A stretch of DNA of 64,000 nt from Neophaeotheca triangularis (taxonomy: Eukaryota), in contig BAAIJX010000012.1 of NCBI GenBank assembly GCA_054600435.1, forward strand, positions 186,001 to 250,000, written 5' to 3'. The notes beneath the pieces were generated by a model. That model had not been told where the DNA came from, searched no databases, and was given only the letters and a program-made list of their open reading frames with translations. Both the position numbers and the translations under genes were made by a program. Shown here piece after piece: positions 3,001 to 54,826 of the stretch. Each line of letters opens with the position of its first letter. The first letter of the stretch is position 1.

Positions 3001-4054
3001 GTCTTTGGAGGTGTCACCTGTCTCCCCGGCTGCTTCTGCATGTACCGCATCAAGACACCCAAAGGTGGGCAAAATTACTGGGTCCCCATCCTCGCGAACC
3101 CGGACATTGTCGAGCACTACTCGGAAAACGTCGTCGACACGCTGCACAAGAAGAACTTGCTGCTGCTGGGCGAGGACCGCTACCTCTCCACGCTCATGCT
3201 CAAGACTTTTCCCAAGCGCAAGCAAGTCTTTGTCCCGCAAGCCGTGTGCAAGACCACGGTCCCGGACGAGTTCAAAGTGCTGCTCTCGCAACGCCGGCGC
3301 TGGATCAACTCGACGGTCCACAATCTCATGGAACTCGTCCTCGTGCGCGACTTGTGCGGCACTTTTTGCTTCAGCATGCAATTCGTTGTCTTCATCGAGC
3401 TCGTCGGCACTCTCGTCCTCCCCGCCGCCATCTCTTTCACAATCTACCTAAGTGAGTCCAAACCCCGCCCACTCTGAAAAAAAAAAAAAAAAAAAAAAGT
3501 AAACCCCCAACTAACACCCACTCCTCACAGTCGCCATAGCAATCAAAGCCGCCATAACCAACACGCCCGCCCCCACCATCCCCCTCATCCTACTAGCCCT
3601 CATCCTCGGTCTCCCCGCCGTCCTAATCGTCGTAACCGCGCACCGCTGGTCCTACATCCTCTGGATGCTGATCTACCTCTGCTCCCTCCCAATCTGGAAC
3701 TTCGTCCTCCCGACCTACGCCTACTGGCACTTCGACGACTTCAGCTGGGGCGACACCCGCAAATCCGAAGGCGAAGCCAAGGGCGCGGACAAAGGCGGTC
3801 ACGGCGGCGATGGCGAATTCGATTCCAGTCGCATTGTTATGAAGCGCTGGGGCGACTTTGAGCAGGAGAGGAGACTCCGTGCACCGGTTGCTGCTGGTAC
3901 CGGGGGTTTCAAGGCCGGGGATCGCAGTGTTGGGACTACGGTTTATACGGGTTCTGCACCTAGTCAGGCGAGTTGGCCCGAGAGACCTCAGCCCGGCCAT
4001 CAAAGGGGCGGGAGTAGTGGGTTTGTGGCTGGCGGTCGGGCGCAGGATTGGTGA
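37..4054 (+). CDS. chs4: Class IV chitin synthase (yeast Chs3-like), ~1312 aa; exons 37-3451, 3531-4054
   Basis: GT2 chitin synthase motifs MVDADT, LGEDRYL and QRRRW; N-terminal TM pair plus luminal cytochrome-b5-like region. Intron 3452-3530 (GTGAGT...CTAAC...CAG) restores the frame into the 3665..4054 ORF ([15 protein letters not shown]). A branch point and acceptor (GCTGAC 14-19, AG 31-32) just before the ATG imply an upstream intron. Confidence 0.95.
3477..3498 (+). repeat. Poly(A)22 tract inside the chitin synthase intron
   Basis: 22 consecutive A between the donor at 3452 and the branch point near 3511. Confidence 0.9.
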
Positions 4055-4815
4055 GGTTTTGGGTTTGTAGCAGGGCTGTCGTTTCCAAAAAGGACACGGA
4101 TGAGGTGGAGTGCTTTGGTTCTTTCTGTTTTTGTTTGAGCAGTTTCGCGATAATTACCCGTTTCTTCCTCCTGTTTTTCGTCATATCCTTGCCGAAGGGT
4201 CGCGAAGGAGGATAACACGGCGCGATCTTGGTTGACTACTTCGATCCAACCTCGTGGGCTTTGAGCTCCTTTTGTATCATTACTAATGAGGAAGAAAGAT
4301 TTGCTTGGTGGCTTTTCAGGAGTTTGTCCCAATGTTTTTGAAAACGATCGAGGAAAACATTAATACATGACTTCCCACGACGCCCCAACGTGGTTTTTAA
4401 GTACCTAACTATGTTTGTAGCAGCGAGGCGACGGATTCAAAAGACTTTCGCTTGACTACTTTTATCTGCCGTCACCTTCCTTTGCCTCATCCATGCACCC
4501 CCATCGATCTGCCTTCCCGCTCGCCCCAGCCTGATCAAAGCATCTGCCTGGACGCACCCACTAGGAAGGATGCCTAGCCGATAATGTGGCAATGAGAACG
4601 CACAACAGGGCGAAACGGCATCGGAGGACGGGCCCCAGACTCCAGCAGCTTTCTCATACACTTGATGGCAAAGTTACCAAGCAACTCATAGGCGCAGGAA
4701 AAGACAGCACTCAGCTCGCGACAGAAAACGGAAAACAGGAAGACTAAAAAAAGAAGAAAGAAGAAAAAAGGGTATCTACAAGAAAGAAGCCAAAAAGGGT
4801 CCGTTCCCAAAACTC

Positions 4816-6496
4816 TCACATAATCAACCTAAACAAAAACCCCTCGTCAGGCAAGCGCGTGTGCGCAGTCTTGACATGGCCGGTCCACGTATCCACGACG
4901 CCCGTCGCCCCCAAAACCTCCTGCCACTCATTCAGCGCCACAAGCCTCACAAACCGCTCCTCCCAGACCACGGCAATCTCGGTCTCGAACCCGCGCTTCG
5001 GCACCGTGGCGACTATCTCCTCGTGCATGTTGTTCTCCGGCCCGAAGCGCTCCAAAACCTCGGTCCGCGAATGCGCCAGCACCGCCCACGATATCACCTC
5101 GGTGGCGCCGTTCCACGAGACCCAGAGTTTGCGGTCGTGTGGGTCGGCGGCCGCGCGCGGCGGCCAGCGCGGCCAGCCCTGCCACGCGCTCTTGTAGACG
5201 CGGTACGTGCGCACCCAGCTGTCCAGGACGCCGAATTGCACGTCCATGACGCACGCGCCGCCCGCCGTGTACTCGGAGAAGGAGGCCATGGAGCCCCAGC
5301 CGAGCAGCGCGTTGCCGTTGGCCAGCTGGTCGTAGCTGCCCATGGCGTAGGCGCCGATGTCTTGCGGCGCGAAGAATTCTTGCTCCACCATGGCCGTCAT
5401 GTTGTCGTGGTTGAGTTTTATGCGGACGCCGCGCGAGCAGCGGTCGTCGGTGCAGCCGACTGGGTCGCTCCAGTGGAGGTTGCGGTTGTCGAAGACGGTG
5501 AGTTGGGTCCAGTTTGCGTCGATGAAGCGCGAGTGGTGTTGCCAGGCGAAGTCGGTGGCGCGGTGCGAGCTTAGGTCGCGGAAGTTGTTGTGTTTGCCGC
5601 CCAAGTGCCAGATGGCGGCGCCTGAGGTGCCGTTGATGAGGTGTAGGGAGTGGAGCCGGCGGAAGGAGACGAGGTAGTGGCCGAAGTGGTTCTGGTGGGC
5701 TTGTTAGTGGGTTGCGGGTTAGGATTGGGCAGCCAGGTTTGGGTTTGGAGCGTACTTTTTGCAGGCTGTTGATGTGGTAGGCGTCCCAGCCAATCTCTTC
5801 ATTCCTCTCGTAGTCGGAATAGGAGTCCGTCACGGGTATGTTCTCCGAACCACGCCACGAGAAAAGGAGCTCGCCGGTCTCGATATCAATCTCCTGGAAC
5901 ACGCTATCCAGCAGAGCATCCTCTTTCAGCCCGCCGATGGGCGAAAGATCGAAGATTGTCCTCTCGTAGGCCGTGACAAGCACCGTATCGTCCTCCGTGA
6001 TCTGACACTCGTGCAAATCCACATTCGTCGTCAACCCCACCGTCGAGATGTTGTACACGACCTCATAGCGATTGTTCATGAAGAAGCAATTCCCCGTAGC
6101 ATGCCCTTTACCCTGGTGTCCGGCCCAATACGTGAGATAATCCTCGCCCCTGTACTTTTGCACGCGCGCATTGTTCGAGTTTTGAAACGCCGGGTTCCCG
6201 TAGACCAAGCTTAGGTCTTTGCTACTGAAGAGATAGGGGCCTACTCTTTGCTCGCCGTCTTCCATGTAATTGGGTTCGAAGATGATGTGCGAGGTTTGGT
6301 CGATTAGGGAGTCGTTCCAGACGGTTACGTCGAAAAGAGGCGAGCGGACGGGGTCGGACTTGTAGGTTTGGAAGGGGGAATCGCCGTATTCGCCTCCCTG
6401 ATAGGCTGTGTAATTGTAAATCACTCCTTGGTCACATACTACCCTGCTCGCCAGGGCCAGTATTGAGACGCATACTGACAGTAGGCGGCTCGACAT
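4816..6496 (-). CDS. Secreted arylsulfotransferase (ASST)-like beta-propeller protein, ~538 aa; exons 6496-5756, 5691-4816
   Basis: Signal peptide MSSRLLSVCVSILALASRVVC; ASST-family motifs DLHE, FQEIDIETGELLFSW, DAYHINSL, WQHHSR, GNALLGWG, YRVYKSAWQGWP and WVSWNGATEV. Intron 5755-5692 (GTACGC...CTAAC...CAG) joins the two ORFs in frame. Confidence 0.85.

Positions 6497-7933: not shown

Positions 7934-7963
<30 letters not shown>
7934..7963. repeat. (TAT)10 microsatellite
   Basis: Direct reading of the sequence. Confidence 0.9.
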
Positions 7964-8114: not shown

Positions 8115-9128
8115 TCAATAAATGGACTGCTTGGACATCTCAATCGCCGTCGCCGTAGCCTCGTCCATGTCCTCCTTTGGCAGATCAAGCACCTCGTTAA
8201 CCGTACCACGAGTCTTCTCGAAATCACCCGAGTCGTCTGGAAAAAAGACGCGCGAGTACATTGCCTTGACAAAACCCATCCTATCACCCGCTTGCATCGC
8301 AGCATTGCCTTCTTCGTAACGCTCCCTGACTGGCTGCTTGACAACATTCCAGTCCCCCTCCTTGGAACCCGTGACCCGGAGCGCCGAGTCGAACATCTCC
8401 CTTTGCGTGACTGTGAAGGAATTGATGTAGACCATTTTGTTACGGTAAACATCAAGGCAGGCCTCGCCATTGCCACTCTCCGGCTTGATGGGCAAAGACA
8501 GCAAGGCAGCGACGCCACGACCGAGCTGCGGCCACGTGGTAACGGAGGTAAGAGTCTCGCCCTCGCCAAACAAAGTAGCAGTCCGCTCCTTGAAATCGAA
8601 GCCAAAAGCCGAAGGAATCGCCATGGACCATTCGTACCAGAAACCGCAGCTTACACCCAGCCAGGCGCTCTTGCCATGACTTTCGATTTGCTCACGGGCT
8701 GCCTTCAAGCGCTGAAACACCGGAACGTCCTCGAGAAGACCGTCGTGAGCCGAGTCCGGCGAAAACTCGTTGGGGAGGACCCACGGAACCTTTGCGTCTG
8801 CTGCCGCTTGTAGGATTGTGGCTTGCGTGTCGTGAGCGAGGATGCTCAGCGTGATGACCAGGGCGTCTTGACCTCTGAGTGCTTCGACGATGGTGGCCGG
8901 GCTGGAGTAATCGACTTTTGCGACTTTGACACCTTCGGGGAGGCTGGACTTGCTATCCACGCGAGTGACGGCCGTGACGACGTGTTTGCCGGTTTTGAGG
9001 AGCTCTCTGGTAATGTGGCTGCCGCTGTTGCCGCCGGCCTGGTAGGTTTTAGCATGGGACTTTTTGGCAGGAACATGATGGGCCGAGCATACCCCAACGA
9101 TGGCTACGTTCTTGATGTAGTTGGACAT
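8115..9128 (-). CDS. NmrA/isoflavone-reductase-like NAD(P)-binding oxidoreductase, ~319 aa; exons 9128-9093, 9038-8115
   Basis: Removing the in-frame 54-nt intron 9092-9039 (GTATGC...CAG) gives the Rossmann motif NVAIVGAGGNSG. Also LRGQDALV, VPWVLPNEF and CGFWYEWS, typical of fungal CipA-like atypical SDRs. Confidence 0.88.
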   Translation of the reverse strand: MSNYIKNVAIVGVCSAHHVPAKKSHAKTYQAGGNSGSHITRELLKTGKHVVTAVTRVDSKSSLPEGVKVAKVDYSSPATIVEALRGQDALVITLSILAHDTQATILQAAADAKVPWVLPNEFSPDSAHDGLLEDVPVFQRLKAAREQIESHGKSAWLGVSCGFWYEWSMAIPSAFGFDFKERTATLFGEGETLTSVTTWPQLGRGVAALLSLPIKPESGNGEACLDVYRNKMVYINSFTVTQREMFDSALRVTGSKEGDWNVVKQPVRERYEEGNAAMQAGDRMGFVKAMYSRVFFPDDSGDFEKTRGTVNEVLDLPKEDMDEATATAIEMSKQSIY

Positions 9129-10555: not shown

Positions 10556-13503
10556 ATGTTTGTGAAGTATTTGCCCCTACTGGGGATCTTGGGTCTGACA
10601 GGGCATGGACTCGCTCAGGAGGGCTATGGTGATTCCAGACCATCAGCGAACGACCAAGTCAGAGTGCACTGGCTTGGTGATACGCCTCCGGTCGTATCGG
10701 GCACTACTTTCGGCGTACCATGGGCTCGAGGCCAGTACATGCCCGAAGAGGCACGCTTCTCCATCATGTCGACAGATGGGCAGGAAGTGAATGCTCAGAC
10801 CTGGCCTACGGCTTACTGGCCAGACGGTTCTATCAAGTGGACGGCTCACGCCATTGCGGCCAGCAACACGACTTTCGACGAGTACACCATCAATGTATCC
10901 AGCGATGGCGGCTCCGCTCACGCCAGCTCGGATAACCACGGCGGAGTTACAGTTACTCAGAACGATGACTACGTTGAGGTCGACACTGGATCTATCGCGG
11001 CTAAATTCCCCAAGTCCGGTCATTCCATCATCAGCGAGATTATGTCTTCCAGTGGAAACGTCATTGGCGAGAACGGCAGACTCGTCTTGCAGCACAAGTC
11101 CGAGTTCGCTGGGCGCGACGTTACGCACTTCGAGAGCAACATCCTAGATGTCACCGTTCAAGAAGAGAGCGGCCCTGTCAGAGCTCTGGTCACGGTCAAG
11201 GGTAACCACACCGTGCAAGGGGACTCTGGGGACAGCCACGCTCCATGGCTACCATTCCAGCTGCGCTTCTACATGTACGCCAACTCGGAGGCAATCAGGG
11301 TTGTGCACAGCGTGATATACGATGGCGACCAAAACTCCGACTTCATCGCTGGGCTCGGGCTCCGATTCGACGTTCCTTTGAACGACAAGCTTTACAACCG
11401 ACACGTCCGTATTGCCAACCAAGAGGGCGGCTTCCTCAGCGAGGCTGTCTTGGGTATCACTGGTCTTCGCCGGGACCCTGGCGAGGAAATCAGGGACGCT
11501 CAGATCGAAGGGGTACCGCTCCCGCCCGAAGAGGAATGGGACGAGCGAGTCACCTCCCGGCTCCAGTGGATTTTCCCCTGGAAGGAGTACAGCCTAGACC
11601 AGCTGTCTCCAGACGGCTTCACCATGGACAAGCGTGTCGATACCCAGTGGGGCCGCGTCAAGATCGCCGGAGGCACTCGCGCCGGCGGTCTTGCGTATCT
11701 TGGGGGTGCCACCTCGGGCGGTCTCGCACTTGGTCTGCGCGACTTTTGGCAACAGTACCCGGTCAGCCTTGACATTAGAAACGCCACCGACGACGCTGGT
11801 GAACTCACCCTGTGGCTCTACAGCCCCAAAGCCGAGCCCATGGATCTCCGCCCTTACCACGGTGTCGCAGGCCAGGAGACATTCGAGGACCAACTCGATG
11901 CTCTGGACATCACCTATGAAGACTACCAGCCCGGCTGGGACACTCCCTACGGCAACGCTAAGACGCACGAACTTTACATCTTCGGCTTTGAAAGCACGCC
12001 CTCCACGGATCATCTCGCAGACCTGACCGAGAACATGCACGACCCTCCCGTTCTGGTCGCTGAGCCCGGATACATGGCTTCCACCGAAGCTCTTGGGGAC
12101 TACTGGTACACGCTCCCGAACGTAACCTCGGAAGCCACGCAGGAGATTGAGGGAAACCTTCAGTTCCTCATGGATTTCTACATGCGTCAAGTTGAGGACC
12201 ACAGGTGGTATGGCTGGTGGGATTACGGTGATGTTATGCACACCTATGACCCGGACAGGCATCAATGGCGCTACGATGTGAGTGATAATATGGAGATGTA
12301 GAGAAAAGAGGGACCCTCCGGCATTGTATTGCTTGCTAACTCATCCTTTCAGGTCGGGGGTTACGCGTGGGACAACTCGGAACTCTCCCCAGACCTCTGG
12401 CTCTGGCAGGACTTCCTTCGAACTTCATCGCACGATACTTACAGAATGGCTGAAAGAATGACTAGACACACTGGCGAAGTAGACGTGTACCACTTTGGCC
12501 CATTCAAGGGCTTTGGTACCAGGCACGGTGTTCAGCACTTCTCCGACAGCTCCAAGCAGCCGCGGGTGTCGCAAGCCCAATACCGCAAGACCTTCTTCTA
12601 CCTCTCCGGCGGCGACGAGCGCGTAGGCGAGCTGCTCGACGAGATGCTCGACGCCGAAGACACCTTCCTGAACGTCGACATCCGCCGTAAAGTCCGCGAC
12701 TCGGACATTGAGTACTCACCGGACCCGGAAGCGCTGCTCTTCGACACCGGCCTCGACTGGTCCGGTGTCGCCAGTGCCTGGCTGATCGAGTGGGAAAGGC
12801 GCGGTCCTCGCTGGGAAGAATCCCGCATGAAGCTCATCAACACCATGAACGGGCTCGGCAACCTCACCAACGGCTTCGCCACCGGCTCCGCCCTGTACAA
12901 CCAAACCGACGGCACCCTTTCCCCACCCCCCGAAGACCCGGACAACGAAGGCGTCGTCGACGTAAGCCACCTAACAGCCGTCTTCGGCCTCCCCGAAGTG
13001 ATCGCCCAGGTAAGCCCAAACCCCCAGCCCCCCCTCCCAAAACCAACCAACCGACCCTAACCCCCCCTCCTCCCTCAAAGCTCCGCGTCCACATGGCCTC
13101 CGAATTCCCCCAACCCTTCCTCTCCGCCTGGCTCGAATACTGCACCCTCTACGGCGCCAGCCGCGCCGAGCAAGCCGGCCGCTACGGCGAAGACTTCGGC
13201 AACCTGATCCTGCAACAAGGCCACTCGCGGCTCACAGCCTACGCGGCGCGCGAGTCGCAAAACGCCACGCTGCGCGACCGCGCTTGGCAGGCCTTCTACA
13301 CCGACGGCCTCACGCCCTACGTGCCTTGGTCCGCTGAGCTTCTCGACGGCAGTCGCGTGCAGCGGCCTTTGGAGGAGGCCCAGTGGGTTAGCACCAACGA
13401 GGCCGCGCAGTATGGTTTGGCGGCTATTCAGAACTTGGCTTTGATTGGAGCCGCGCCGCCGCCGCCGCCGGAGCCTGAGGAGGAGCCTGAGGAGGGGGCT
13501 TGA
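10556..13503 (+). CDS. Secreted PL26-family exo-rhamnogalacturonan lyase (PcRGLX/YetA-like), ~933 aa; exons 10556-12277, 12353-13009, 13081-13503
   Basis: Signal peptide MFVKYLPLLGILGLTGHGLA; family motifs TTFGVPW, WPDGSIKWTAHA, WYGWWDYGDVMHTYD..RHQWRYDVGGYAWDNSELSPDLWLW, RHTGEVDVYH, GTRHGVQH, GHSRLTAYAA and STNEAAQYGL. Introns 12278-12352 and 13010-13080 are canonical and give a continuous frame. Confidence 0.85.
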
Positions 13504-14255
13504 GGGTCGGTCTTACTCCTGAGTGAGGCTTGACTTTGTAGATGAGTGAATTGGTAGAATCAATGTTCTTGAGCTAGAGTCTTGAATCGTAGATTGAACG
13601 TTGCTAGTTACTAGTACTAGTTTGATCTAATGAAGAGGATCATGGCTCGGGATGCTCCTCTCTCTCTCTCCCTCTCCCTCTCTCTCTCTCTGCACAAAGG
13701 CGCTACATAAAAACGTATTAAAAGCCACATAAAACCAAAGAAACAAGAGAGATATAGTTGTATTCGAGACGAAAATGAACCCCCAGTAGAAGGAACTACC
13801 TAGCTGAGGGGGAAAGGGATTTGGCGTAAAACTAGTTAGACACGCTCTTACTTCTGGCTCTGCATACCAACTACACACCAGCCGCAAAAAGCTCCAGCAC
13901 GTACCGGAGCCAGTTGTGGATCCTAGTACAGTACTGATGGGAAACAGGGAAACCTCTAGTCTTCTGTATGCAAGCCTCCAAGCGACGCTATCGCCGGAAG
14001 AGTATATCTCCGTACTGTATATATACCTTTGGCTCTTAAAAAGCTGTCTCTCTCTCTCTCTCTCTTCTTCCTTCAGTGTATATAGTCAAGCAGACATGTC
14101 GCTTTTAATAGCTGTATCGACAAGACGCGAACATGGCCGCAAAAAAACAAGCACGCGCATAAAAGTAGAAATCCGGGTGGCGAGCCGCTCTTCCCAGAGT
14201 TGTGAACCTCCCAAAAAAAAAAAAAAACGCCCAGAAAAATGCAGTCGTCGACGGC

Positions 14256-17527: not shown

Positions 17528-17563
<36 letters not shown>
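17528..17563. repeat. (TAC)12 microsatellite
   Basis: Direct reading. Confidence 0.9.
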
Positions 17564-18363: not shown

Positions 18364-18641
18364 GACGAGGCCGGTGAGTTTTTGGCAACTCCCGTTAGAG
18401 GAAATCCTCGATTGCGTGGTGGTATGTAGGCGTCCATGAATCCTCAACCGGAAGGTGGTAGACGGTGGGTAGACTAGCCGATGCTCCGAGTGCTGTCCCT
18501 ATGGCGCTGTTTGAGCTGATGTCCGCCGCGGCATCAAAGCTTAGACAACAGTATCATCGCTCCGGAAGCCAACCGTTCTCGAACGAGTCCTTCCGCCTCG
18601 AGCGCAAGTTCTCACAAGCTCTAGCCCGAACGCAACCACAA

Positions 18642-19127: not shown

Positions 19128-19710
19128 GCTTGCGGGTGGTGCTGCTGTGAGGTGGGCGGACCGTGGGAGGAGAAGCCTGGTTTTCTGGCCTTTCCCGATC
19201 TTCTTTCCTGGTTATTTCGAATTCACGTTCCGACGAGAAGGGTGGCGATGTGGCAGAGACTACGTTTCCTACTGACAGGTGCAAACGTGATGAAGCTCGG
19301 ACGCGTTGTGCTGCTTAGTCGCCTCGTTAGGGTTAGGGTTGGTGAATGCTCTCGCCCTCTGCCATGTTCTCCTTTTGTCCGCCTCTGTTGTTGCCCTAGT
19401 AATGGCGCTTGCTCTCCTTATATGTATGCATTGCCTATATTGTGGGAAAGGAAGAAACGTGTTGAACTATTGAAATTGATACTACGGTCTCACCCCCACT
19501 GCTGGGTAATGATATCGCGAACCAACAGCCGCACTAACCATAACACAAACCAAATGTTTCCACCCGCCTGTCTATCATACATGATGATCAAGTTCCAGTC
19601 TGACGATGGCACAGCTTCACCGAAGACAATCCAGCCCTCGCTTCTCCCCGAGGAACCATACGCAAAGCCACCTTCCTCTACCCCCCTCCACCGCCGACCT
19701 CTGCAATGGC

Positions 19711-40385: not shown

Positions 40386-41448
40386 TCAAACGAGCCTCCT
40401 CTCAGCCCTCCTAATCAACTCCTCATACACCGTCCAAGCCAAAGCACTACTAACAGCCTTGCGCCCAATCCGCAAACTAAGCCCATCAAACATACTCCTC
40501 AGTCCTTCCTCCTTGAGCATCAGCTTTGCCCCCTGCACCATATTCGCATACTTGCGCGGCATAATCTGCAACCGCGTCTTGATAGCATCAAAAGGATTCG
40601 TGAGCGTCGTCGCCGCGACGGCCGCGACGACCCCAGAAGCAAAGTTCACACTGGCAGCGCCATAAACCGTCGTCGTCGACCTCGCCTTCGCCTTCTTTCC
40701 CCCATCATCACCATCACCCCCCTCTCCTTCCACAGCCCTCACAGCCCCCAACCTCGCCTTCGCGTTCTCGTAAACCAACACGTACAGGCCCGCGTACGGC
40801 GCATCACGCACAGCGGTGGCGCCGAAACCGGCAAAAAACCCGCGCAGCCCTTCGCGCCCGAGGACATCCCTGCCCGCTCCCGCCAGCGTCGTGTAATTGT
40901 AGTAGGAGCTCTCATACCGCACCTTGAGCACGGTGACGGGGTTCATGATGAAGCCGGCGGCAACCCTTGCAGCGGCACCGGTGGACAGATTGGCCAAATT
41001 GCCCAATTTCGGTAGCGCGGAGCTATCGCTCTTGTTGTTGTTGGTGGTGGTGGTGGTGGTGTTGCCGCTGCCGCCGATGGTCGCCGGGAGAGCGGCCGCG
41101 TGGCTGCGCAGCTGGTTCAGCATGCCGAAGTACAGGGCGCTGCCGAAGCCTGTGCGGATGACCGAGGGGGTTGTGCCGCGCCATAGTTGCTGCAAGGGTT
41201 GCGGGCCGGCGAGGACGGAGCGCAGGACCGAGGTCAGGGTCGCGGAGCGGGATTGCTGGATGCGGGTTTTGAGGAGGTCGGCGGGCTGCAGGAGGAAGGC
41301 GGAGGTGCAGCCTGAGGTTAGGCCGGCGAGGAAGTGGAAGCCTGGTTGGGTGGGAGTTAGGAGTGAGGGCAGTGGATGGATGCATGGATGGGTCGCGGTT
41401 TTGTTGCTTACCTGTCGACGCTTTTTGCTTTGCAGCGCCATCGGACAT
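40386..41448 (-). CDS. HEM25: Mitochondrial carrier, glycine transporter Hem25/SLC25A38, ~330 aa; exons 41448-41412, 41341-40386
   Basis: Three carrier signature repeats ([27 protein letters not shown]); [19 protein letters not shown] and [14 protein letters not shown], characteristic of SLC25A38. Intron 41411-41342. Confidence 0.9.
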
Positions 41449-42086
41449 TGCAGTTGTGGAGTTAGTACATTGTGGCTCTCGTCAAGTGCCCTGGGCCTTT
41501 TTCAAAGGCGGACGCTTGTGGCCATGATGAAGAATGGCTTTTGTAATGATATATTAGACTGTTTGCTGCGAAACTCGGGTCGGCCAGCAGCGAATCAGCA
41601 AAAAAAGCGCGTCTCGCGTGTTGGAGATGAGGTCATGGACTTTCAATTGAACTCGAGTCAGGGCATCGAGGGCAACGACTGTTCTCTAAAAGCTAAACTA
41701 CCTAGCTAACTTATGTCTCTATATCCAACAACAAAACATGAGAGAAGCAAATTCATTACCGTTAGTAGAAGACCGGCAGAGGCGCAGAATAATGTCGCGC
41801 AGTATGAAGAAAAGGGTTCGTTGCGATCATACGGACATGGCTAACTACACGCCTAGCACCACTCACTCTCTCATTCACCCCATCCATCCACATAGTTTCC
41901 GCTCATCACTATTATGTACAGCCAACCGCCACCCCACACTCCTTTACATCAACTAAGCGTCCGAAAGACCTCACAAACAAACCACCCACCGTAACATCAC
42001 AAGCACGTCCCCATCTGCGGTGAAGCACTCAAGATACGGCTTTAGAGCTTTCTCTCCTCGCGTGAGTGTTAACAAGAACAATCCCC

Positions 42087-42767
42087 TCAACTCCTCTCAT
42101 CAGCATCTTCAATCTTGACTCTAAGCTTCGCACGTTTCTGCGCCTCCTCTTCACCCACCCCCTCCCTGCCGTCATCCTCCGCCTTCCTCTTCGCGCCCAT
42201 GGAAGCCTGCTGCTGCGTAATCTTTGGCGCCTGCGCAGCTCCCACGCGCATCCCTCCTTCCGGGGGCTCGACAGGCGTCGGCAACTGAGCATTATTGGGA
42301 GTAGCAGCAGCCGTCGCCGTCGCACTTGCCGGCACCGGAACGTTGGGGAGTTTGGGCTTGACACCAAAGTTCCCAATGACATTCCTATCGCCAACGATGG
42401 TGGTGCCGCAGTTGACGGTGAGGTTGACTTTGATGCGCGGTTTACGGCTCTGAAGAGCGTTGGCGTTGTTGAGCTGGGTGATGGCTTGCAGCAGCACGGT
42501 GCTAAAGCGCGAAGCTTCCATCATGGGCGATGGTGTGGTGGGGACTAGGTTGTTGTGGCCGTGGATTTGGTTGGCGGCGTTGATGGTCAGGTTGATGGGG
42601 TGTGTGGGGGTGTCATCGTCGGAGTCATCGTCTGAGTCGGCGTCGTCGTCGTCGTCTTGATAGGGTGGTGGTGGGGCTGTGGCGTCGACTGATGGTGCGG
42701 GCGCAGTGGTTTGTTGGCGAGCGCGTTCGGCCATGATCTTTTGTGTAAGATGGGTTAGATCGCTCAT
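42087..42767 (-). CDS. Hypothetical protein, ~226 aa
   Basis: PPPPY plus an acidic tract; two similar beta-strand motifs (INLTINAANQIHGHNNLV and VNLTVNCGTTIVGDRNVI); C-terminal bipartite-NLS-like KRKA...KRAK. TATA-like element near 42862. Confidence 0.7.
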   Translation of the reverse strand: MSDLTHLTQKIMAERARQQTTAPAPSVDATAPPPPYQDDDDDADSDDDSDDDTPTHPINLTINAANQIHGHNNLVPTTPSPMMEASRFSTVLLQAITQLNNANALQSRKPRIKVNLTVNCGTTIVGDRNVIGNFGVKPKLPNVPVPASATATAAATPNNAQLPTPVEPPEGGMRVGAAQAPKITQQQASMGAKRKAEDDGREGVGEEEAQKRAKLRVKIEDADERS

Positions 42768-43265
42768 GGTTGGTGCAGGTTTGGTCTGGATTGGGTGTTG
42801 CGCACGATGCACGATCTCTAGAGGACGATGCTATGCGCGTTGAAGGGGCGGTTTGGTCCCTTATATAGGGTGCTTCCTGCTTGTTGTTGCGATCTGGAGG
42901 CTGCGACAAGGGGAGGAGGTGTTGCTTGGTGATGGCAACAATAAGTCAGGATTTTCTCTCAGGTGATCTGTCGAAAGGGCGCAGATGCGAAGAGAGGGTT
43001 GGAGAATATCAATCACACTGCGACGTCTGGAAAAGGCAAGAATGGTCGGTGTTGGGTAAGGGTAGAGCAGAGTTCAGTTGAGACAGAATAATAGATGTAT
43101 GCCTGAGGCTCGATGATGGATGGTATGTCGAGAGTGAGGTCAACAAGTAAGAAGAGTGGAAGTGATGTGTAGTGAGGTGAAAGTGTAGAGATAGATATAG
43201 GGAGACTCTTTTCAACCTCACTTATTGACGACGAGTAGGAGAGGGTGGGTACATAGTACTTATTC

Positions 43266-43591
43266 CTATTGTTGGTGGGTGGCGGGCAACGCTGCTATTG
43301 TCGCTCAGCTTCCCTATTGATGCCGGTCGTGTGTCACACCACCGCGACCACTCCAAACTTTTGCTATTGACCCGGAGGCAACAGCCCGGGCAAGAAGGTG
43401 ACTGACCTGGCATCCGACTCATACTCTGTCGACTGTGCCGCGTCTTACTATTGGGAGCACGACCAATTATTTTATCTTGCGGGCTGGTTTTCGCGTTTGT
43501 ATCAGGTATCATCCTGACACTCGAACTTGCTGAGCGGAGGTGGAGTTACATAAGGTAGGTTGCTATTGTCGGCTTTTCAAGGTTGCTATTG
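43266..43591. promoter_or_regulatory. Array of seven same-orientation CTATTG motifs (HMG/alpha-box-like sites)
   Basis: CTATTG at 43266, 43295, 43314, 43364, 43448, 43563 and 43586; three are extended as TGCTATTGTCG. Confidence 0.6.
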
Positions 43592-45198: not shown

Positions 45199-46934
45199 TT
45201 CGTGAGATGCGCTCCTTGAGGGAAGAGAGGTGGCGTTTCGATAAGATCCGAGGGAATATGCGCCGGAAATATGGGTGCACCGTCAAGTCGCAGCGACAGA
45301 AGGAATGTTGGTGTCTCCGGAGATCTGTTCTAGCTCCTCGAGGAATGGCGGGGTGGAGAAGGCGAGACGAAGAGAGAAAGAAGTTGGAAGCTCTCTCAGC
45401 TGCGCAGAGTAAGGCAGGTAGCTTAATAAACCAAGGCTACCGTGACGCTTCGGCGTGACCGCTTCAGCTCGGTAGGTATGTCGCTTGGTGCAGATTCGGG
45501 GCTGAGAAAGATAGGAAGGAAAAGGTGACTCCAAGGGTGGCATGATCCTTTCGCGCGTACCTTGGGTATTATTATACCTCTTCTACGCTTCTACCTCCCA
45601 CCTACCTCGTCGTTTTACAGTTTGGCTGCCTGCTGCGGCGAAGGCGGCCGGACCCACATGGTGAGTCTTTGTGATAATGCACATGTTTGTAAGTGTTGGG
45701 CGCAACGGGTGGTGATGGGCTTGTCATTTGAGACTTGCGGCGGAGTTTGTTGTTTGCCGCGCGAAGGATCAAAGCCCCTGTCAAAGCCTGGAGGGCTGAA
45801 AGAGGAAAGGGACCTAAATGGAGGGAAGGGGTGGGCAGTGGGGTGGGGTAGGCTGTGGGCGGTGGGCGGTGTTGGAACGGGAGCTCGGGCACGTGCTCGG
45901 GCTTCGCGTATATCAACGTTAATAACAACAAGAAGGTGCATGGGTGCTTTCTGCCGCCAACCGACTGCATGTGCCCGGAAATAGGATTGATATGACTTCG
46001 CCGCATGTCTCACTCACTACTCCCGTCTCGTCAAAGAAAATGCCCGACGCTAATCAATTCCATCAAATGCTAGGCCTTCTGATCTTCCACCCACCTCATG
46101 CTGCAGAATGCCAAAGTATCCTCGGCAGTCTTCTCCGTGTCCCACCACTTCCTCTCGAATCCATCGGGAGCATGGCCGACCCTCGAAAGCCGTACCTTCG
46201 ACGGCGCCACCCAAGAGTGAGAGTGGAAAAGCGTCGCCGAGAAGGTCTCGAAGGTGTTCAGCTCTCACCTGGCGTCGGAACTTCTTAAGCATGGGTAAGA
46301 GCAATCATCTTGTGCCTCCCTCTCGGTCAGTAAGCTTGGGGACCTTGTTGAGTTTGCAGATGAACCTGATCCTTGAGATCTCTTCTTCGGCCCGATCATC
46401 GAGGCGGTCGCGGACAATTTTCTAATCACGTCAAAAGTCGCCTGTGCTCTGAACACGAGAAGGGAGTCGTACCTCTGACAATGGCGCTCGCCCAGCTTCG
46501 GCCACACAGTTGACGTTGCATGGCGCGGTCGACCTCCAGAAGATAGCAATTCCAACCACATCATCCCCAGTCCCCTAACCTACAAAACCACCCGGCCAGC
46601 ATCTCCCGACGAGATACCCAGACACCTGTCGGGATCTCGTAAACCTGGGAGGTAACTCGTAGGCACCTCGCTATCGCTTCCATCGATTCAATACATCGTC
46701 ATCAATCATGTCGACAAGGCACCGTGCTACGGACGACAGAAGCTCCTTTCTCAAAGTACGACGCCATAGATTGATGGTTTTTCAAACATTTAACTTCAGC
46801 TCTGATTGATGAAAACGACATCGTCGACCGCGTGTTTCCATGCATATGGCCAGCCATCGATTCAAGGCTCTAGAACGCTCAAACGCTGTATCAAAATCCC
46901 AGTCGATCCACCCACATTTACCCGTAGGCTGCCA

Positions 46935-49760
46935 TTACAACAAACTCTCGTACCTATCAAGTCCCCCTCCCGCGCCGCCCGTCGTCCCACTCCCGCCAGC
47001 ACCCGCTCTCTGCTGCTGCTGCTGCTGCTGTTGTTGTTGTTGTTGTTGTTGTTGTTGCCTCTGCTGCGGATTCCCAAACGGCGGCGCCTGAAACCCCTGT
47101 CCCACAGCCTGCGGGCTCACAGGCGGAGGGGGCAGACCAAAGCCCTTGCTCGCGGCGTTAACGCCACCGTAACCGTTGGAAGTCTGCTGCGGCCGTGGTG
47201 CGGTCGACCAGTTCGAACTACTGCTATTGGCGGCCGCGGACCAGTCTATTGCCGAGCCTTTGCTTGCGTTGTTTGCGGGTCGGAGCGGCATGCTAGTCTG
47301 AGGTTGGGTTTGGGTGCCCAGTCGGGAGGGCTGCAGGGGCATGCTGTATTGACTTGATGGCGTGAGGGAGGCGAATGAGCTCATGGATTGATCGGGGGTG
47401 ACTGTGCGGTTGATGGAGGATTGTTGTCGAGGGGGCTGAAGAGTGTTGATGCTTTGCTGTTGTTGGGGCCGTGACGGTTGGGCGGTGGGGGTGGATTGCC
47501 AGGAGAAGGTCGGCGCTTGATTGGTATTGTTTCTGGCATTATTTGCTTGGGCGGTTGCTGGGGTGCCCCAGTCGTTCATGAGGTCGTCGTTGCCGTTGGC
47601 CTGGGCTTTGCGGCCAGAGACCAGGGTCTCGAAATCCGTTTCTTCCCCATTGCCCATTGCGTCGGTATCCCCAGTGGCTGTCTGTCGGCCTAGACGTGCA
47701 GCGCCGGCGCCGGCGCCGGCACCAGCGCCTGAATTAGTGCTGGATAGCTCGCGCAGCTTCCTAGTTTGCTCGCGTTCGATCTTGTTGCTGAGGCTCTTGA
47801 TTAAGGTCATGAAGGCTTGGAACTGCTGCAGGTTCAGGAGTGGCCCCAGACTGAACTGCCATAGTATTGGAAGCACTTCCATGGCCAGGTAGTCAGTGTC
47901 CGCCACTTGTCCAACTTGCTTGAAGACTTTGAGCGCGGCGACCATGACGCCAGGTTCTTTTGTCTTGATGCCCTTAAGCAAGGGCACTACCTTTTCTTGC
48001 ACCGTGAATTTGTCGAGAATGATGGACGAGCTACTGTTGGAGGGCTTCTTGTCTGGTATGCCAATGCCATTGAGATCATCCTCTTCGCTCGAGTCTGTGG
48101 AAGACCCACCACAGAGGGTATAGAAAGCTTCAAGACCCCGTATCTTGATTGTAAGGCTGCTCGTCTTGGCGAAGACTGCAGCAATCGCTGGGAACAAATC
48201 GTTCTTAATAGTAGAGAAATCCAACATTGGAAGCACGTACTGCAGAGTACTGAGAGCAGCGTCTACAAGGCCGTGGGTTGGGCTGTCAAGTGCCAGTAAG
48301 ATGATAGGTAGTATGTCGTCGTGGAACTCCTTGCCTTGGCAGTTCTCAGCTACTGTTGGCATCTGCTCGAGTAGTATCATGAGGCCTGCTTCTCTGCTGG
48401 CGTCTTTCTCCGTAGCGGCAGCTTTTGTTAGGAAGATCTCTCGCAAACGTGGTACAACTTTCTCGGTAAAAGCGCGTTTGCCTGTAGGCATCGCTTGCAC
48501 CATGGCGAAAACGTTGTTCAGGATTGGTGCGAGTAGATCCCGGTCCTTCATCTCCTCCAGTAGTGCAGGGAGCACCTTCTTTTCCAATACGCTCTTTGGG
48601 AACTGCGGCATGATCTTCGGCAGCCCTCGCATGAACTGCGCCTTTTCGTTGGGTGTCTTTGCTGGAAGAGCGTCGAGAAAGCGTATCGTGGAGACGAGGA
48701 TGTTGTCGAAATAGCTTGCCTCCTGAAACTCTCTGGCACCGAGCCGCTGTGCAGGTCGACGGGTGATCAAACGTGGCAAAAGCTCCGAGGCCAGCTTAGG
48801 GGGTAATGGGTTTGTTCGTGGCACAAGAAAGTTGTTTGATTGCGAGGGAACGCTGGAGCTGGATGAAAATGTACGCTTGTACGTTGAGAGTGAACCCGAG
48901 GTCTGTAGGGGCGAAGTGTGAGGAGAATTGTACAGCGCGATGATCAGCAGCCCTAAGGAGAACATGTCGGCACTTGGGTTGAGATTGTTATCGAGCACAA
49001 AGTCCGGACTGGTGTAATCCAAGTTCAGCTGCACTGAGCGAGGGAGCCGAGGATCGTGAGTTAGCACTTCGCTCAGATTGATGGGCGTAATACTGCTGGC
49101 AGCAGTGCTGTTCTCATGTGGCCCGCAGAATGCCAACCCACTGATCTTCCAGTCGCCCTTTGCATTGATCAATACCGCCTCAGGCGTCAGATTCGCGTGT
49201 ACCAGGCCAGCGCTCTCGTGCATAAACTCCAGTCCTTTGCCCAACTGCAACAGCCCCTTCTGAATTTCTAGCTCGTCAATCTCCAGCTCCCGTCTCTTTC
49301 TCGTGCCATCAGCCTCTTCGACAACGTACCGACTGCCCCTTCCACCCACCCCACCCGAGCGCTCTTGCTCATCCTTCTCTTGTAACAGACCGGCCAAACT
49401 CGCCGTCACAGGCTCCGTAGCAAACATCAAACCCCCATTGCGCGTCTCTTCGACCGGCTCGGCTAGCTCCAGGATACTGGGATGTCGCAACCGCGCCAGG
49501 CTACTTGCTTCCTTGCGTAGGCGTTCGAAGATCTGCTCATGCACCCGCTTGATTGCACTGGTACTGCTACTTCCACGCAAACCACCGCCAGCAGGCTCGA
49601 GCGACTTCTTATCGAATACGAAGACGGAAAAGGGCTTTCCGGTCTTCTTGTGCTTGGCGTCGAAGATGTTCCATGGCCCTGAACTGGACGATGGCTTCGG
49701 ATCGAGGGTATAGTTGCTGCCAATGTTGGAGCTAAAGGACTTCAAGGCATTGGAGAACAT
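46935..49760 (-). CDS. SCY1: SCY1/SCYL2-family pseudokinase with HEAT repeats, ~941 aa
   Basis: LARLRHPSIL, FATEPV, HANLTPEAVLINAKGDWKISGLAF (no HRD/DFG), LDYTSPD, HEAT region, LPILWQFSLGPLLNLQQF and terminal GLDRYESLL. Confidence 0.93.
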   Translation of the reverse strand: MFSNALKSFSSNIGSNYTLDPKPSSSSGPWNIFDAKHKKTGKPFSVFVFDKKSLEPAGGGLRGSSSTSAIKRVHEQIFERLRKEASSLARLRHPSILELAEPVEETRNGGLMFATEPVTASLAGLLQEKDEQERSGGVGGRGSRYVVEEADGTRKRRELEIDELEIQKGLLQLGKGLEFMHESAGLVHANLTPEAVLINAKGDWKISGLAFCGPHENSTAASSITPINLSEVLTHDPRLPRSVQLNLDYTSPDFVLDNNLNPSADMFSLGLLIIALYNSPHTSPLQTSGSLSTYKRTFSSSSSVPSQSNNFLVPRTNPLPPKLASELLPRLITRRPAQRLGAREFQEASYFDNILVSTIRFLDALPAKTPNEKAQFMRGLPKIMPQFPKSVLEKKVLPALLEEMKDRDLLAPILNNVFAMVQAMPTGKRAFTEKVVPRLREIFLTKAAATEKDASREAGLMILLEQMPTVAENCQGKEFHDDILPIILLALDSPTHGLVDAALSTLQYVLPMLDFSTIKNDLFPAIAAVFAKTSSLTIKIRGLEAFYTLCGGSSTDSSEEDDLNGIGIPDKKPSNSSSSIILDKFTVQEKVVPLLKGIKTKEPGVMVAALKVFKQVGQVADTDYLAMEVLPILWQFSLGPLLNLQQFQAFMTLIKSLSNKIEREQTRKLRELSSTNSGAGAGAGAGAARLGRQTATGDTDAMGNGEETDFETLVSGRKAQANGNDDLMNDWGTPATAQANNARNNTNQAPTFSWQSTPTAQPSRPQQQQSINTLQPPRQQSSINRTVTPDQSMSSFASLTPSSQYSMPLQPSRLGTQTQPQTSMPLRPANNASKGSAIDWSAAANSSSSNWSTAPRPQQTSNGYGGVNAASKGFGLPPPPVSPQAVGQGFQAPPFGNPQQRQQQQQQQQQQQQQQQQRAGAGGSGTTGGAGGGLDRYESLL
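47010..47057 (-). repeat. (CAA)9(CAG)7 coding repeat encoding polyQ16 in the SCY1 tail
   Basis: On the plus strand it reads (CTG)7(TTG)9. Confidence 0.9.
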
Positions 49761-53422: not shown

Positions 53423-53996
53423 AGGGTTGAGGACTCGTCAGATTACTGGTTGTGCGTTTTCTGGGATATAGTGGACGACTCAATGGGTTCCGGGTGCCAG
53501 TGCCTGGCTGATAAGGTCGTTCCGCTTCTCCCAGTGTCTGGTAGCCATGGAGTTGCTTCTGGGTGGCCCGCCTGGGCGAGAGCATCCCACTGCCTTCAAG
53601 CCATGCATGGGCAAGACTTGCCAGGGGCCGCTACACGCTTGGTCTCTCAGGACGTTCAAAAGCTAAGGGACCACAGCCTATGCGTGCGATGACTGTCCAA
53701 AGCACAGATTCGGCGAAGCGGCTCGTTGAGGATGGGCAGGATCCCACCACATCATGATGTATTTGTACGTGTGAGTACTGGGGTCGATGCACTTGGAGTA
53801 GCATGCTAGGCGATAAATGTGATATAGGACTTGATAACAGTTTAACAGTGACCCTACACTAGAGACACAGGTCTCGCAAAGGTAGCAGAGCGCAGCTCAT
53901 GGTATCGCCCAGACCGACCCCCGTTTGGAGGCTAAAAACACCAAACTCCATGCACGCACATCTATACCCTGAACCCCCTCAAACCATCCAAGAGCA

Positions 53997-54826
53997 CTAA
54001 ACATCTTGTACCAAAACGCCCTCCACAACTCCCTTCGCCAGCGCCTGCACGGCCACGCTATCCCCACTAGCATCCACCGCCAAAACGTCCCCTTCATCCA
54101 CCGTCGGCGCTTCCAAACTCTGAAACTGACTCCTCACCATCGAATCCTTCATGTAATGGCCCTTCCGCATTCTCACGCGATCGAGCAGCGCCGCCTCATC
54201 GGCTTGCAAGAAGACAAAATGCACTTGCACGCCGGGGTGGCTATAGGCGGCGACGCGCAGCACGTCGCGGTATTTGCGTTTTAGGGCGCTGCAGGTTACG
54301 ATGACGCCGGAGGGGGAGGGGGAAGTGGGGGTATCGGTTTTTGGGTGCAGAGTGGAGAGTGCTTCTTCTCGGAGTAAGATCAGCCAGTCCCACCTGTCCG
54401 CGTCGGTTAGGGGGATGTTGTTGCCCATTTTCTCGACGTTGGAGGGGGGGTGGTACTATGGGGTGGGGTGTTGGTTAGCTGGCGGTTCTTTTATTGCGGG
54501 TGGTCTTGGAGCTTAGGGCGGTGGGTCTGAATTGTTCACGCTCGTTTAGGTCTCAGGCGAAGGAGTTTACTCACGGTATCGCCCTCCAGATACGGCAGTT
54601 CGAACGTCTGGTGTAAGTACTCGGCGACAGACGTCTTGCCGCAGCCGGCCGGCCCCGTTATCACCCAGATGTGCTTGTGAGCGGGCTGCGATGCTGAGAC
54701 GGTGGGAGAGATTGAGTCGTCGTTGGCCATTTGCGCGGGCTCGGAGGGCGGTGTCAAGGGCATGCTTGTGGGCATGGTGGCCTTGGTCGACTTCTCGTAG
54801 TTGAGCATGTTTGCTATTGAGGCCAT
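53997..54826 (-). CDS. Gluconokinase (GntK/IdnK type), ~236 aa; exons 54826-54575, 54455-53997
   Basis: P-loop ITGPAGCGKTSV; EGDT|YHPPSNVEKM..IPLTDADRWDWL across intron 54574-54456; CSALKRKYRD and GHYMKDSMVRSQF. Confidence 0.93.

Follow-up and report, generated by a model that had tools for sequence, protein, structure and literature searches.

The window, the whole 64-kb stretch of DNA analysed here, is gene-dense, with about 24 genes whose models were built on open reading frames (ORFs), Pfam and PDB, five of them on ORFs only. Across it, the keto skew (G/T against C/A) repeatedly changes from C/A-rich to G/T-rich within modules whose arms are 300-700 bp long, and it is back to zero between genes; the modules occur once per gene, every few kb. 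A sliding keto-skew profile, combined with a flip score defined as the mean skew over 300 bp to the right less that over 300 bp to the left, recovered every centre listed in the original prediction. At a score threshold of 0.5, the whole window contains 12 up-flips (C/A to G/T) and 4 down-flips; the corresponding counts are 5 versus 0 at 0.6 and 19 versus 15 at 0.4, and up-flips are steeper than down-flips. Shuffling the window in 100-bp blocks yielded a mean of 0.94 up-flips (maximum 4) and never at least 12 (0/200), and blocks of 300 bp, which leave complete arms intact, gave a mean of 4.9, with 12 reached in 1 of 200 shuffles. An up-minus-down excess of at least 8 was seen in 0/200. The repeated flips that the original prediction had described, 12 against 4 and unmatched by the 100-bp shuffles, are therefore real. 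No motif common to the flip centres was found. The modules lie at the following positions.

3379..4277, plus strand: 3' end of a chitin synthase gene (stop 4054, centre 274 bp upstream of it); a C/A-rich candidate intron of 79 nt lies within the C/A arm, 3379-3780, and the G/T arm, 3781-4277, spans the ~90 terminal codons together with the 3' UTR.
4600..5817, minus strand: 3' end of an arylsulfotransferase-like gene (stop 4816, centre 5311 at W=400); the coding strand is C/A-rich over 5817-5312 (position-3 skew -0.80) and G/T-rich over ~5100-4600.
8150..9127, minus strand: NmrA-like gene (stop 8115), a weak module whose centre, 8767, precedes the stop by 652 bp.
12798..13613, plus strand: 3' end of a PcRGLX-like lyase gene (stop 13503), with a strong C/A arm that carries a C/A-rich intron-like junction, and a short G/T arm.
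18554..19433, minus strand: the strongest module (F 0.77), covering a small whole gene modelled on its ORF only (ATG 19127, stop 18642) with no Pfam match; it is C/A-rich in the 5' UTR and N-terminal half and G/T-rich in the C-terminal half.
19503..20700, minus strand: 3' end of a pectinesterase gene (stop 19711); position-3 skew -0.68, -0.48, then +0.64.
21640..22699, minus strand: 3' end of MDM1 (stop 21765), a weaker module called at threshold 0.4; an RNA contig with 99% identity confirms the sequence at the flip.
24486..25522, minus strand: 5' part of MDM1 (ATG 25565, centre ~540 bp downstream of it), with codons 50-200 C/A-ending and codons 200-450 G/T-ending; this exception is the sole one of the 15 originally listed centres outside 50-750 bp of a stop.
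25655..26795, minus strand: 3' end of a PhoD-like phosphatase gene (stop 26097; the centre precedes it by 67 bp); on the coding strand the G/T arm is nearly all 3' UTR.
29200..30827, minus strand: ORF-only gene running from ~30705 to 29428, with no Pfam match and a long G/T arm.
30950..31592, minus strand: small gene (stop 31077) with a C/A-rich intron, 31380-31431, that is spliced in an RNA contig.
32057..33050, minus strand: 3' end of the Spc25 gene (stop 32111).
38146..39500, minus strand: 3' end of a pyridine-nucleotide disulphide oxidoreductase gene (stop 38367); along its long C/A arm, position-3 skew runs from -0.28 to -0.80.
40400..41579, minus strand: mitochondrial carrier gene (stop 40386), covered by the module.
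41750..43283, minus strand: ORF-only gene (ATG 42767, stop 42087) with its 5' flank; no Pfam match.
46600..47664, minus strand: 3' end of a protein kinase gene (stop 46935).
53864..54986, minus strand: gluconokinase gene (stop 53997; PDB gluconokinase match, E 9e-22) with a C/A-rich intron-like gap at 54456-54535.
57724..58612, minus strand: 3' end of a 2-oxoacid dehydrogenase E2 gene (stop 57776), called at threshold 0.4.

These modules are not scattered units; they are anchored at the 3' ends of genes. With 24 stop codons considered, a stop is located 50-750 bp downstream of 16 of 19 unbiased up-flips (26% expected, p = 2e-7) and of 14 of the 15 originally listed centres (26% expected, p = 8e-8). 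When only the 19 stops supported by homology or RNA were used, the counts were 13/19 (p = 1e-5) and 11/15 (p = 2e-5), respectively. Ten of 15 down-flips fall 20-450 bp downstream of a stop, which places them between genes. In 18 of 19 genes, keto skew is higher in the tail than in the pre-terminal zone (Wilcoxon p = 1.9e-5). Relative to the stop codon, the coding-strand skew is about -0.2 from about -1000 to -450; pooled over 24 genes, it is -0.20 to -0.23 at -600 to -450, passes zero near -280, reaches +0.22 at -50 to +100 and is ~0 from +150, giving a sharp outer edge. The G-C skew near the stop is +0.29, +0.36 and +0.26 in bins -200, -100 and 0, and G+C is 0.60-0.62 at -500 to -300, compared with 0.52-0.53 further upstream and 0.49-0.50 past the stop (0.595 at the flip centres). 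A second C/A-rich zone surrounds the start codon, from -100 to +400. Here the start-anchored skew lies between -0.16 and -0.19 over -100 to +200, an interval in which each of three 100-bp bins has negative keto skew in 15-16 of 19 genes, and the G-C skew lies between -0.14 and -0.23 over -200 to +200 (19 starts). According to the per-gene position-3 profiles, the C/A bias deepens right before the switch in 6 of 7 long genes, producing the sharp bipolar modules. The flips that do not follow the rule, outside the 3' zone, are the strong MDM1 centre at ~25000 in the 5' part of a long gene, 16707 and 44009.

Because the pattern is oriented by transcription and equals its own reverse complement, the plus strand always runs from C/A to G/T whichever strand the gene occupies, in agreement with the earlier observation that the pattern is self-complementary and present in genes of both strands. 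We conclude that the modules are very probably a compositional signature of gene ends and no separate element. The CpG-rich centre that had been described holds in that CpG observed/expected is 1.17 there, against ~1.0 in the arms, but it is not specific to CpG, as GpC also stands at 1.16; the rise occurs because C and G are balanced at the centres at a higher G+C (0.60). For a CpG-island-like bidirectional promoter, the centres offer near-equal CpG and GpC ratios and no shared motif.

Codon position 3 carries most of the skew, ranging from -0.8 to +0.84, with positions 1 and 2 mostly within 0.3 of zero, and the skew extends into introns and 3' UTRs. In MDM1, position 3 reads -0.56, -0.56 and -0.64, then +0.60, +0.84 and +0.72, and positions 1 and 2 remain within about 0.25 of zero; the codons quoted for this gene in the original prediction occur exactly as given, in frame, on the minus strand at 25319 and 24830. 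Fourfold sites contain A.14, C.49, G.21 and T.16 in the pre-terminal zone versus A.07, C.28, G.41 and T.24 in the tail, so that the G-C skew moves from -0.39 to +0.18 and the T-A skew from +0.07 to +0.57. What had been called a C/A-rich arm is therefore mainly C at these sites, and the A excess resides in two-fold codons and introns. Among two-fold codons, T makes up.22 of NNY in the pre-terminal zone versus.50 in the tail (Fisher p = 2e-20), and A makes up.48 versus.26 of NNR (Fisher p = 2e-12). C and A thus climb together, followed by T and G, an outcome that neither optimal-codon selection nor GC-biased conversion would produce; window-wide, T-A and G-C skews correlate at r = +0.30. Two candidate introns called within C/A arms are C/A-rich (skew -0.62 and -0.53), as are three further ones in such arms judged by eye, one of them RNA-supported, whereas two introns remote from gene ends are not. 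Position-3, intron and UTR skew together bear out the earlier claim that synonymous codon choice flips and that introns and UTRs take part.

Overall, these features are best explained by a gene-end signature arising from a transcription-linked, strand-asymmetric transition bias, an account that we consider probable by a modest measure. Over the last ~1 kb of most genes, the coding strand first becomes C/A-rich, which would reflect a bias in the distal gene body favouring T>C and G>A. At ~280 bp before the stop it switches to G/T-rich and remains so until ~150 bp past the stop, which would reflect a bias in the terminal ~430 bp of the transcript favouring C>T and A>G. To the mutational cause as such, a strand-asymmetric bias in transition mutation or repair that is linked to transcription, we assign about even chances. 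The sign reversal 280 bp before the stop is not accounted for by a single transcription-coupled process alone. The "local bidirectional mutational footprint" of the original prediction persists as a class, nucleotide-level and strand-asymmetric, but the mechanisms proposed for it (replication origins, breaks and fold-backs) do not.

It is conceivable, although unlikely, that selection on nascent RNA or DNA acts in place of mutation, with a C-rich, G-poor body avoiding R-loops and structure and a G/U-rich terminal ~430 nt aiding polymerase pausing, R-loops and termination in a gene-dense genome. The G/T zone does stop sharply ~150 bp past the stop codon, about where the transcript is expected to end, and the window is densely packed (~24 genes in 64 kb). 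However, the zone begins within conserved coding domains (carrier repeats, the E2 catalytic domain and pectinesterase) and precedes the likely poly(A) site, unlike mammalian pause elements, which are located after it. The flip centres are without a shared motif, and skews of -0.5 to -0.8 in introns and at position 3, both neutral-looking, are reached more easily by mutation bias than by weak per-site selection. In human genes, terminal GC skew has been reported together with 3' R-loops, enriched where genes are closely spaced, by Ginno et al. 2013 (PMC3787257). The window shares the G>C on the coding strand at 3' ends and the gene-dense setting; in contrast, the G-rich zone here lies mostly in coding sequence, follows an opposite skew and has T>A. 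Of a terminal R-loop or GC-skew terminator, the window presents the G skew at the 3' end, as a skew in the sequence alone. Selection would also take in the nucleotide-supply idea of the 2011 paper by McLean and Tirosh, who likewise offered an adaptive hypothesis (PMC3315797).

Convergent antisense transcription is a more doubtful source of the tail. An antisense start ~150 bp downstream of the stop would write on the opposite strand the C/A-rich footprint that fungal genes usually carry behind their starts, equivalent to sense G/T, and polymerases meeting near -280 would reinforce both footprints. Known genes have a C/A-rich 5' zone of ~500 bp, the tail mirrors it in length (~430 bp) and strength with a sharp edge at +150, and the up-flips are the steeper ones. 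Nevertheless, one RNA run, whose unstranded contigs lie over little of the region, lent no support for antisense transcripts, and the module at 25000 could arise in this way only if antisense transcription also began within MDM1.

It is very unlikely that the modules mark hotspots of meiotic breaks or recombination, where conversion would be GC-biased at the centre and resected DNA would suffer strand-asymmetric damage. The G+C peak near the centres (0.60-0.62 at -500 to -300) does exist, and the bipolar change of sign in strand composition is shared with human break hotspots (PMC7615360). At those hotspots, however, the retained single strand loses C+A (PMC7615360), which by analogy would put G/T to the left and C/A to the right of the centre, and the forward strand here has the opposite polarity. 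Moreover, the flip centres are in coding sequence, not in nucleosome-free intergenic DNA, and A is favoured over G at two-fold codons in the pre-terminal zone, which is unexpected under GC-biased conversion. The hotspot idea put forward earlier is therefore disfavoured by polarity and location despite the G+C peak.

Selected long C/A:G/U fold-backs in mRNAs, also suggested in the original prediction, are scarcely credible. Minimum-energy folds of two modules pair both arms, and complementary 7- and 8-mers slightly exceed mononucleotide block shuffles (z 3.6 and 3.0), but this small excess is as expected from low-complexity C-runs and G-runs. In folding energy, the two modules do not surpass dinucleotide shuffles (z -0.83 and +1.25; 3/20 and 16/20 shuffles fold at least equally well), and the longest exact complementary stretch measures 7-14 nt, which for 13 of 15 modules falls inside or close to the range of the shuffles. 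Arm complementarity is thus what composition predicts. Amino-acid composition or selection for translationally optimal codons deserves as little credence. Synonymous-shuffle means reach 0.48 (small TM gene), 0.38 (Spc25) and 0.31 (gluconokinase gene), and this part of the jump, left after shuffling, indicates that protein content contributes. However, the observed jump was matched by 0/500 synonymous-codon shuffles in 14 of 22 genes and by at most 9/500 in 18 of 22, a jump beyond the shuffles being absent in PhoD (by the shuffle measure), Rrn6, unk44k and ALDH (4/22). The codon-shuffle control proposed with the original prediction, once run, thereby placed the skew jump beyond amino-acid composition in those 18 genes and upheld the view that protein function is no explanation. 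Since non-optimal A-ending and T-ending codons increase in the respective arms, and introns and UTRs are skewed too, amino acids or optimal codons as the main cause are refuted. Replication origins with a leading-strand G+T excess, the mechanism preferred earlier, can be practically discarded: the polarity fits and nothing else does, for although bacterial origins share the bipolar sign change, scale and anchoring differ here, where instead of a replicon-scale skew independent of gene ends we found arms of 300-700 bp, flips once per gene every few kb, centres locked to stop codons (16/19 flips 50-750 bp upstream) and a skew that is zero again between genes.

Taken as a whole, the original interpretation is partly supported; it overlooked both the gene-end anchoring and an existing report of the pattern in fungi (PMC3315797). 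McLean and Tirosh 2011 described, in most fungi, a C-biased gene body and a small G-biased 3' end that continues into the UTR, varying in strength among species, and offered both mutational and adaptive hypotheses for its cause, nucleotide supply being among the latter (PMC3315797). As there, the coding strand in the window is C-rich at the start (C>G) and in the body and G-rich at the stop (G>C) into the 3' UTR, gene by gene, with skew at fourfold sites and in non-coding flanks. In their data, however, AT skews were flat along genes, which served as an argument against a deamination-type cause, and the effect was similar at degenerate and non-degenerate codon positions (PMC3315797). Here T-A moves with G-C (fourfold A 0.07 in the tail) and position 3 and introns dominate, so the match to the published pattern is inexact. 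The C/A-rich zone around starts (-100 to +400 here) is in common with work from 2005 that deals with 5' ends only (PMC555766), whereas most of the originally listed modules are at 3' ends. Among relatives, 46 of the 48 metagenome loci that were scored (redundant copies included) have a G/T zone following the 3' end of chitin synthase, and ORFs of at least 300 aa from 33 non-redundant fungal loci have the same sign, more weakly (mean +0.066, 36/59 positive, p = 0.005). Strong flips number 1.9 per 10 kb in the window and 0.15 per 10 kb in other fungal contigs totalling 330 kb, a ~12-fold difference in density. The window is an unusually strong case, of the keto/amino (transition) type, of the gene-end skew already described for fungi.

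The window carries a recurrent compositional module in which a C/A-rich arm gives way, across a flip centre, to a G/T-rich arm. The feature is real and statistically solid. It is a strong, keto-type example of the published fungal gene-end skew, so that the kind of element is not new, and it is a compositional habit of the genome, as read in one 64-kb window, rather than a set of discrete elements. Keto skew, the excess of G+T over A+C, ranges from about -0.4 to +0.45 in a 300-bp profile across the window. We scored flips as the mean skew of the right 300 bp minus that of the left 300 bp. At a score of 0.5 the window has 12 up-flips (C/A to G/T) versus 4 down-flips (the reverse); the counts are 5 and 0 at 0.6, and 19 and 15 at 0.4. 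All 15 centres of the original prediction, which had been read from the sequence alone, were recovered, and the codons it quoted from MDM1 are exact and in frame. Shuffling the window in 100-bp blocks gave a mean of 0.94 up-flips, with at least 12 in 0 of 200 trials, and shuffling in 300-bp blocks, which keeps the arms whole, gave a mean of 4.9, with at least 12 in 1 of 200. The up-minus-down excess of 8 was reached in 0 of 200 shuffles. The arms therefore exist and are joined preferentially in one order.

The window is gene-dense fungal DNA with 54% G+C and zero N. Gene models are ORF-based, with support from Pfam, PDB or RNA contigs, and the analysis covers this one 64-kb window and the loci of relatives. 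Five more genes are ORF-only calls; the supported genes are as follows.

Supported genes in the window (Pfam support unless stated)
19-4054, + strand, chitin synthase
10523-13503, + strand, PcRGLX-like lyase
33325-36210, + strand, Rrn6
52397-53422, + strand, LYR protein
4816-6694, - strand, arylsulfotransferase-like
8115-9215, - strand, NmrA-like
from 14256, - strand, sulfate permease
19711-20871, - strand, pectinesterase
21765-25565, - strand, MDM1
26097-28465, - strand, PhoD-like phosphatase
from 32111, - strand, Spc25
38367-39584, - strand, pyridine-nucleotide oxidoreductase
40386-41501, - strand, mitochondrial carrier
46935-49835, - strand, protein kinase
55552-57435, - strand, aldehyde dehydrogenase (ALDH)
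57776-59278, - strand, 2-oxoacid dehydrogenase E2
60749-62485, - strand, Zn-cluster factor
53997-54865, - strand, gluconokinase (PDB matches, E 9e-22)
stop at 31077, - strand, small gene (spliced RNA contig)

RNA evidence came from a public metatranscriptome run labelled marine metagenome, in which 9% of sampled words were present. Against 14000-33900 it yielded seven short unstranded contig pieces at ~99% identity, covering parts of MDM1 (21971-23386) and 30948-31544, the latter with a 52-nt intron (31380-31431) spliced out. By this match, that sample contained the same or a near-identical fungus. The flips at 22205 and 31210 are covered by these contigs at 99% identity, and the sequence there is thus no assembly quirk. 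The protein of the small gene is K/E/D/N-rich and has no Pfam match; its last exon (31077-31379, - strand) holds two copies of a ~17-residue peptide, NPSQ-I/L-GDPVSLKAETS... Simple repeats were also seen: (TAT)10 at 7934-7963, (CT)17 at 13658-13691 between the convergent lyase and sulfate permease genes, (CTA)22 at 17511-17578 upstream of the sulfate permease, and (TGT)9.7 at 47029-47057 within the 3' end of the kinase ORF.

The modules are anchored to gene ends. The zone 50-750 bp upstream of the 24 stops makes up 26% of the window and contains 16 of 19 up-flips called without bias (p 2e-7) and 14 of the 15 predicted centres (p 8e-8); with only the 19 stops supported by homology or RNA, the counts are 13/19 and 11/15. 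Of 15 down-flips, one falls there and 10 are intergenic, 20-450 bp downstream of a stop. When coding-strand skew is pooled over 24 genes, it stands at -0.20 to -0.23 from -600 to -450, crosses zero near -280, holds +0.22 from -50 to +100 and is about 0 by +150. The tail (last 300 bp before the stop) exceeds the pre-terminal zone (900-300 bp before it) in 18 of 19 genes. A second C/A zone spans -100 to +400 around start codons, and this zone fuses with the pre-terminal one in short genes, making the entire gene a single module, as at 18554-19433. By our reading of position-3 runs, the C/A bias intensifies right before the switch in 6 of 7 long genes, which accounts for the sharpness of the flips. 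Since the pattern runs with transcription and is identical to its reverse complement, the plus strand shows one and the same order for genes of either orientation; gene-end anchoring thus explains why the modules had been described as self-complementary, present in + and - genes and spaced every few kb. The gene-end rule is broken by the flips at 16707 and 44009 and, in MDM1, by a strong module (centre ~25000) that lies in the 5' part of the gene. Inspection by eye of module strength against distance to the downstream gene gave no clear trend.

The skew is carried by codon position 3 in every homology-supported ORF, while positions 1 and 2 change little. Successive position-3 values are -0.56, -0.56, -0.64, then +0.60, +0.84, +0.72 in MDM1, and -0.68, -0.68, -0.80, -0.60, -0.52, then +0.60 in the oxidoreductase gene. 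We shuffled synonymous codons within each gene (500 trials) and compared the jump from pre-terminal zone to tail: the observed jump was matched by 0/500 shuffles in 14 of 22 genes and by at most 9/500 in 18 of 22, the exceptions being PhoD, whose G/T arm is UTR, Rrn6, one ORF-only gene and ALDH (27/500). Shuffle means of up to 0.48 imply some contribution from protein content. Candidate introns in C/A arms share the C/A richness (chitin synthase, 79 nt, -0.62; arylsulfotransferase, 64 nt, -0.53), as are, by eye, junctions in the lyase, the gluconokinase and the 31-kb gene, the last of these an RNA-supported intron; neither of two introns distant from gene ends is C/A-rich. The last candidate intron of chitin synthase also holds a run of ~22 A at 3478-3500. 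Neither protein content nor translational selection is thus the main cause of the skew, in line with the earlier claim on protein function. Extension of ORFs into an A-poor 3' UTR was ruled out as a general explanation of the coding part of the tail; Pfam domains end a few residues before the stop in the carrier, E2, ALDH, Spc25, MDM1 and pectinesterase genes.

At pooled fourfold sites, the shares of A, C, G and T are.19,.34,.24 and.23 in gene bodies,.14,.49,.21 and.16 in the pre-terminal zone, and.07,.28,.41 and.24 in the tail. In two-fold codons, the T share of NNY is.39 in the body,.22 in the pre-terminal zone and.50 in the tail, and the A share of NNR is.38,.48 and.26. This joint rise of C and A, and then of T and G, marks the skew as amino/keto, of transition type. 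It is not what selection for optimal codons or GC-biased conversion would give, since both favor C and G.

McLean and Tirosh (PMC3315797) described C bias at coding-strand 5' ends and G bias at 3' ends across 64 fungal species, with filamentous ascomycetes well represented; the skew was common to fourfold sites and flanks, and its strength differed by species. Fujimori et al. (PMC555766) reported an excess of C over G around the start sites of plants and of some fungi. The window fits the McLean and Tirosh pattern in four defining points and departs from it in two. First, T-A skew moves with G-C skew (r +0.30 in 213 windows here; median 0.01 in 33 other fungal loci). This coupling matters because the 2011 paper argued against a deamination-type cause on the strength of flat AT skews. 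Second, position 3 dominates in the window. McLean and Tirosh left the cause open, proposing phase-specific mutation or adaptive nucleotide supply, and among three citing papers found, judged by title and abstract, none concerns this mechanism, although other work may be in print.

We scanned metagenomes with the window's chitin synthase ORF and obtained 80 fungal loci, 56 of them with at least 1 kb past the match. A G/T zone lies +500 to +800 past the match in 46 of the 48 loci scored at +500, redundant copies included. The preceding C/A arm is weak in most loci and strong in L004, L013/L014/L016, L025 and L035; in L004, L013, L025 and L035, flips at the same gene end equal the window's strength, and most loci are weaker. 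The strong version may be a mark of certain lineages. Over 330 kb from 33 non-redundant loci, 5 up-flips and 2 down-flips reach 0.5, and strong-flip density is 0.15 per 10 kb versus 1.9 per 10 kb in the window. Among ORFs of at least 300 aa in these loci, the mean tail-minus-pre-terminal difference is +0.066 (36/59 positive; p 0.005); the same crude method gives +0.18 in the window (14/19 positive), and 5% of ORFs in the loci versus 32% in the window reach 0.35 (window versus loci, p 0.07 for the difference). Relatives thus share the pattern, with this genome at the strong end.

The bias is transition-type, extends to all nucleotides that are transcribed and is oriented by transcription; its sign switches ~280 bp ahead of the stop, and it ends ~150 bp past the stop. 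We infer that it is linked to transcription. Rrn6 (33325-36210, + strand) and the Zn-cluster factor gene (60749-62485, - strand) have almost no module and a low GC3 of about 0.5-0.6. Both are presumably weakly expressed, and the near-absence of modules in these two genes is consistent with a link to expression. As the cause of the skew we favor a bias in mutation or repair that is strand-asymmetric and takes one form during elongation and another in the terminal phase. The coding strand would become C/A-rich if G and T were lost from the untranscribed strand, as might happen when O-alkylation stays unrepaired there while transcription-coupled repair clears the template, and deamination of an exposed coding strand would yield a G/T-rich tail.

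Rivals are selection for termination or R-loop control (PMC3787257) and antisense transcription that starts at the 3' end and converges on the gene. Distinctly improbable, in our judgment, is that the modules are scars of pervasive convergent transcription. Antisense transcripts would start ~150 bp past the stop codon in almost every gene of the lineage, the mutational footprint near starts, to which fungal 5' ends owe their C/A richness, would be written on both strands, and the two footprints would meet ~280 bp inside the coding sequence; the footprint would have to be strong enough for skews of 0.6-0.8 at neutral sites. If so, sense and antisense transcription units could be mapped from the skew by itself, and the transition-type signature would implicate damage or repair on a single exposed strand as the long-sought cause of fungal gene-end skews.

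The alternatives of the original prediction fare less well. Break hotspots, in whose favor G+C peaks near the centres, fail on polarity and location; according to PMC7615360, the retained single strand left of the break, on the forward strand, loses C and A. The centres had also been called CpG-rich: CpG observed/expected is indeed 1.17, but GpC is 1.16, so the specificity for CpG falls away, and what had been seen is C and G in balance where G+C is higher. Shared 5- and 6-mers lying no more than 100 bp from 18 centres were all G+C-rich words, and none stayed significant after correction (493 and 1452 tests; best p 4.6e-4 and 6.4e-4). Flip centres are without a discrete element. Fold-backs in the transcripts are contradicted by both complementarity and stability: the arms do not form inverted repeats (longest complementary stretch 7-14 nt), and two folded modules showed no gain over dinucleotide shuffles (z -0.83 and +1.25); total k-mer complementarity of the arms is z 3.0-3.6 above mononucleotide shuffles. 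Replication origins, the favored reading of the prediction, fail on scale and anchoring.

The skew has consequences for annotation. A-poor or T-poor arms remove stop codons on both strands and thereby create long false ORFs; exactly where skew is strong, real genes are faced on the other strand by stop-free ORFs 267-394 aa long.

Antisense stop-free ORFs (ORF scan)
24315-25373, + strand
19588-20772, + strand
38868-39770, + strand
40906-41709, + strand
4666-5574, + strand

These five have no Pfam match, and their like are likely false gene calls in similar genomes. The flip 280 bp before the stop is usable as a gene-end marker for annotation. The cause of fungal gene-end skew has been open since 2011, and an effect that is strong, clearly of transition type and visible in introns makes this a good genome for testing mutation against selection.
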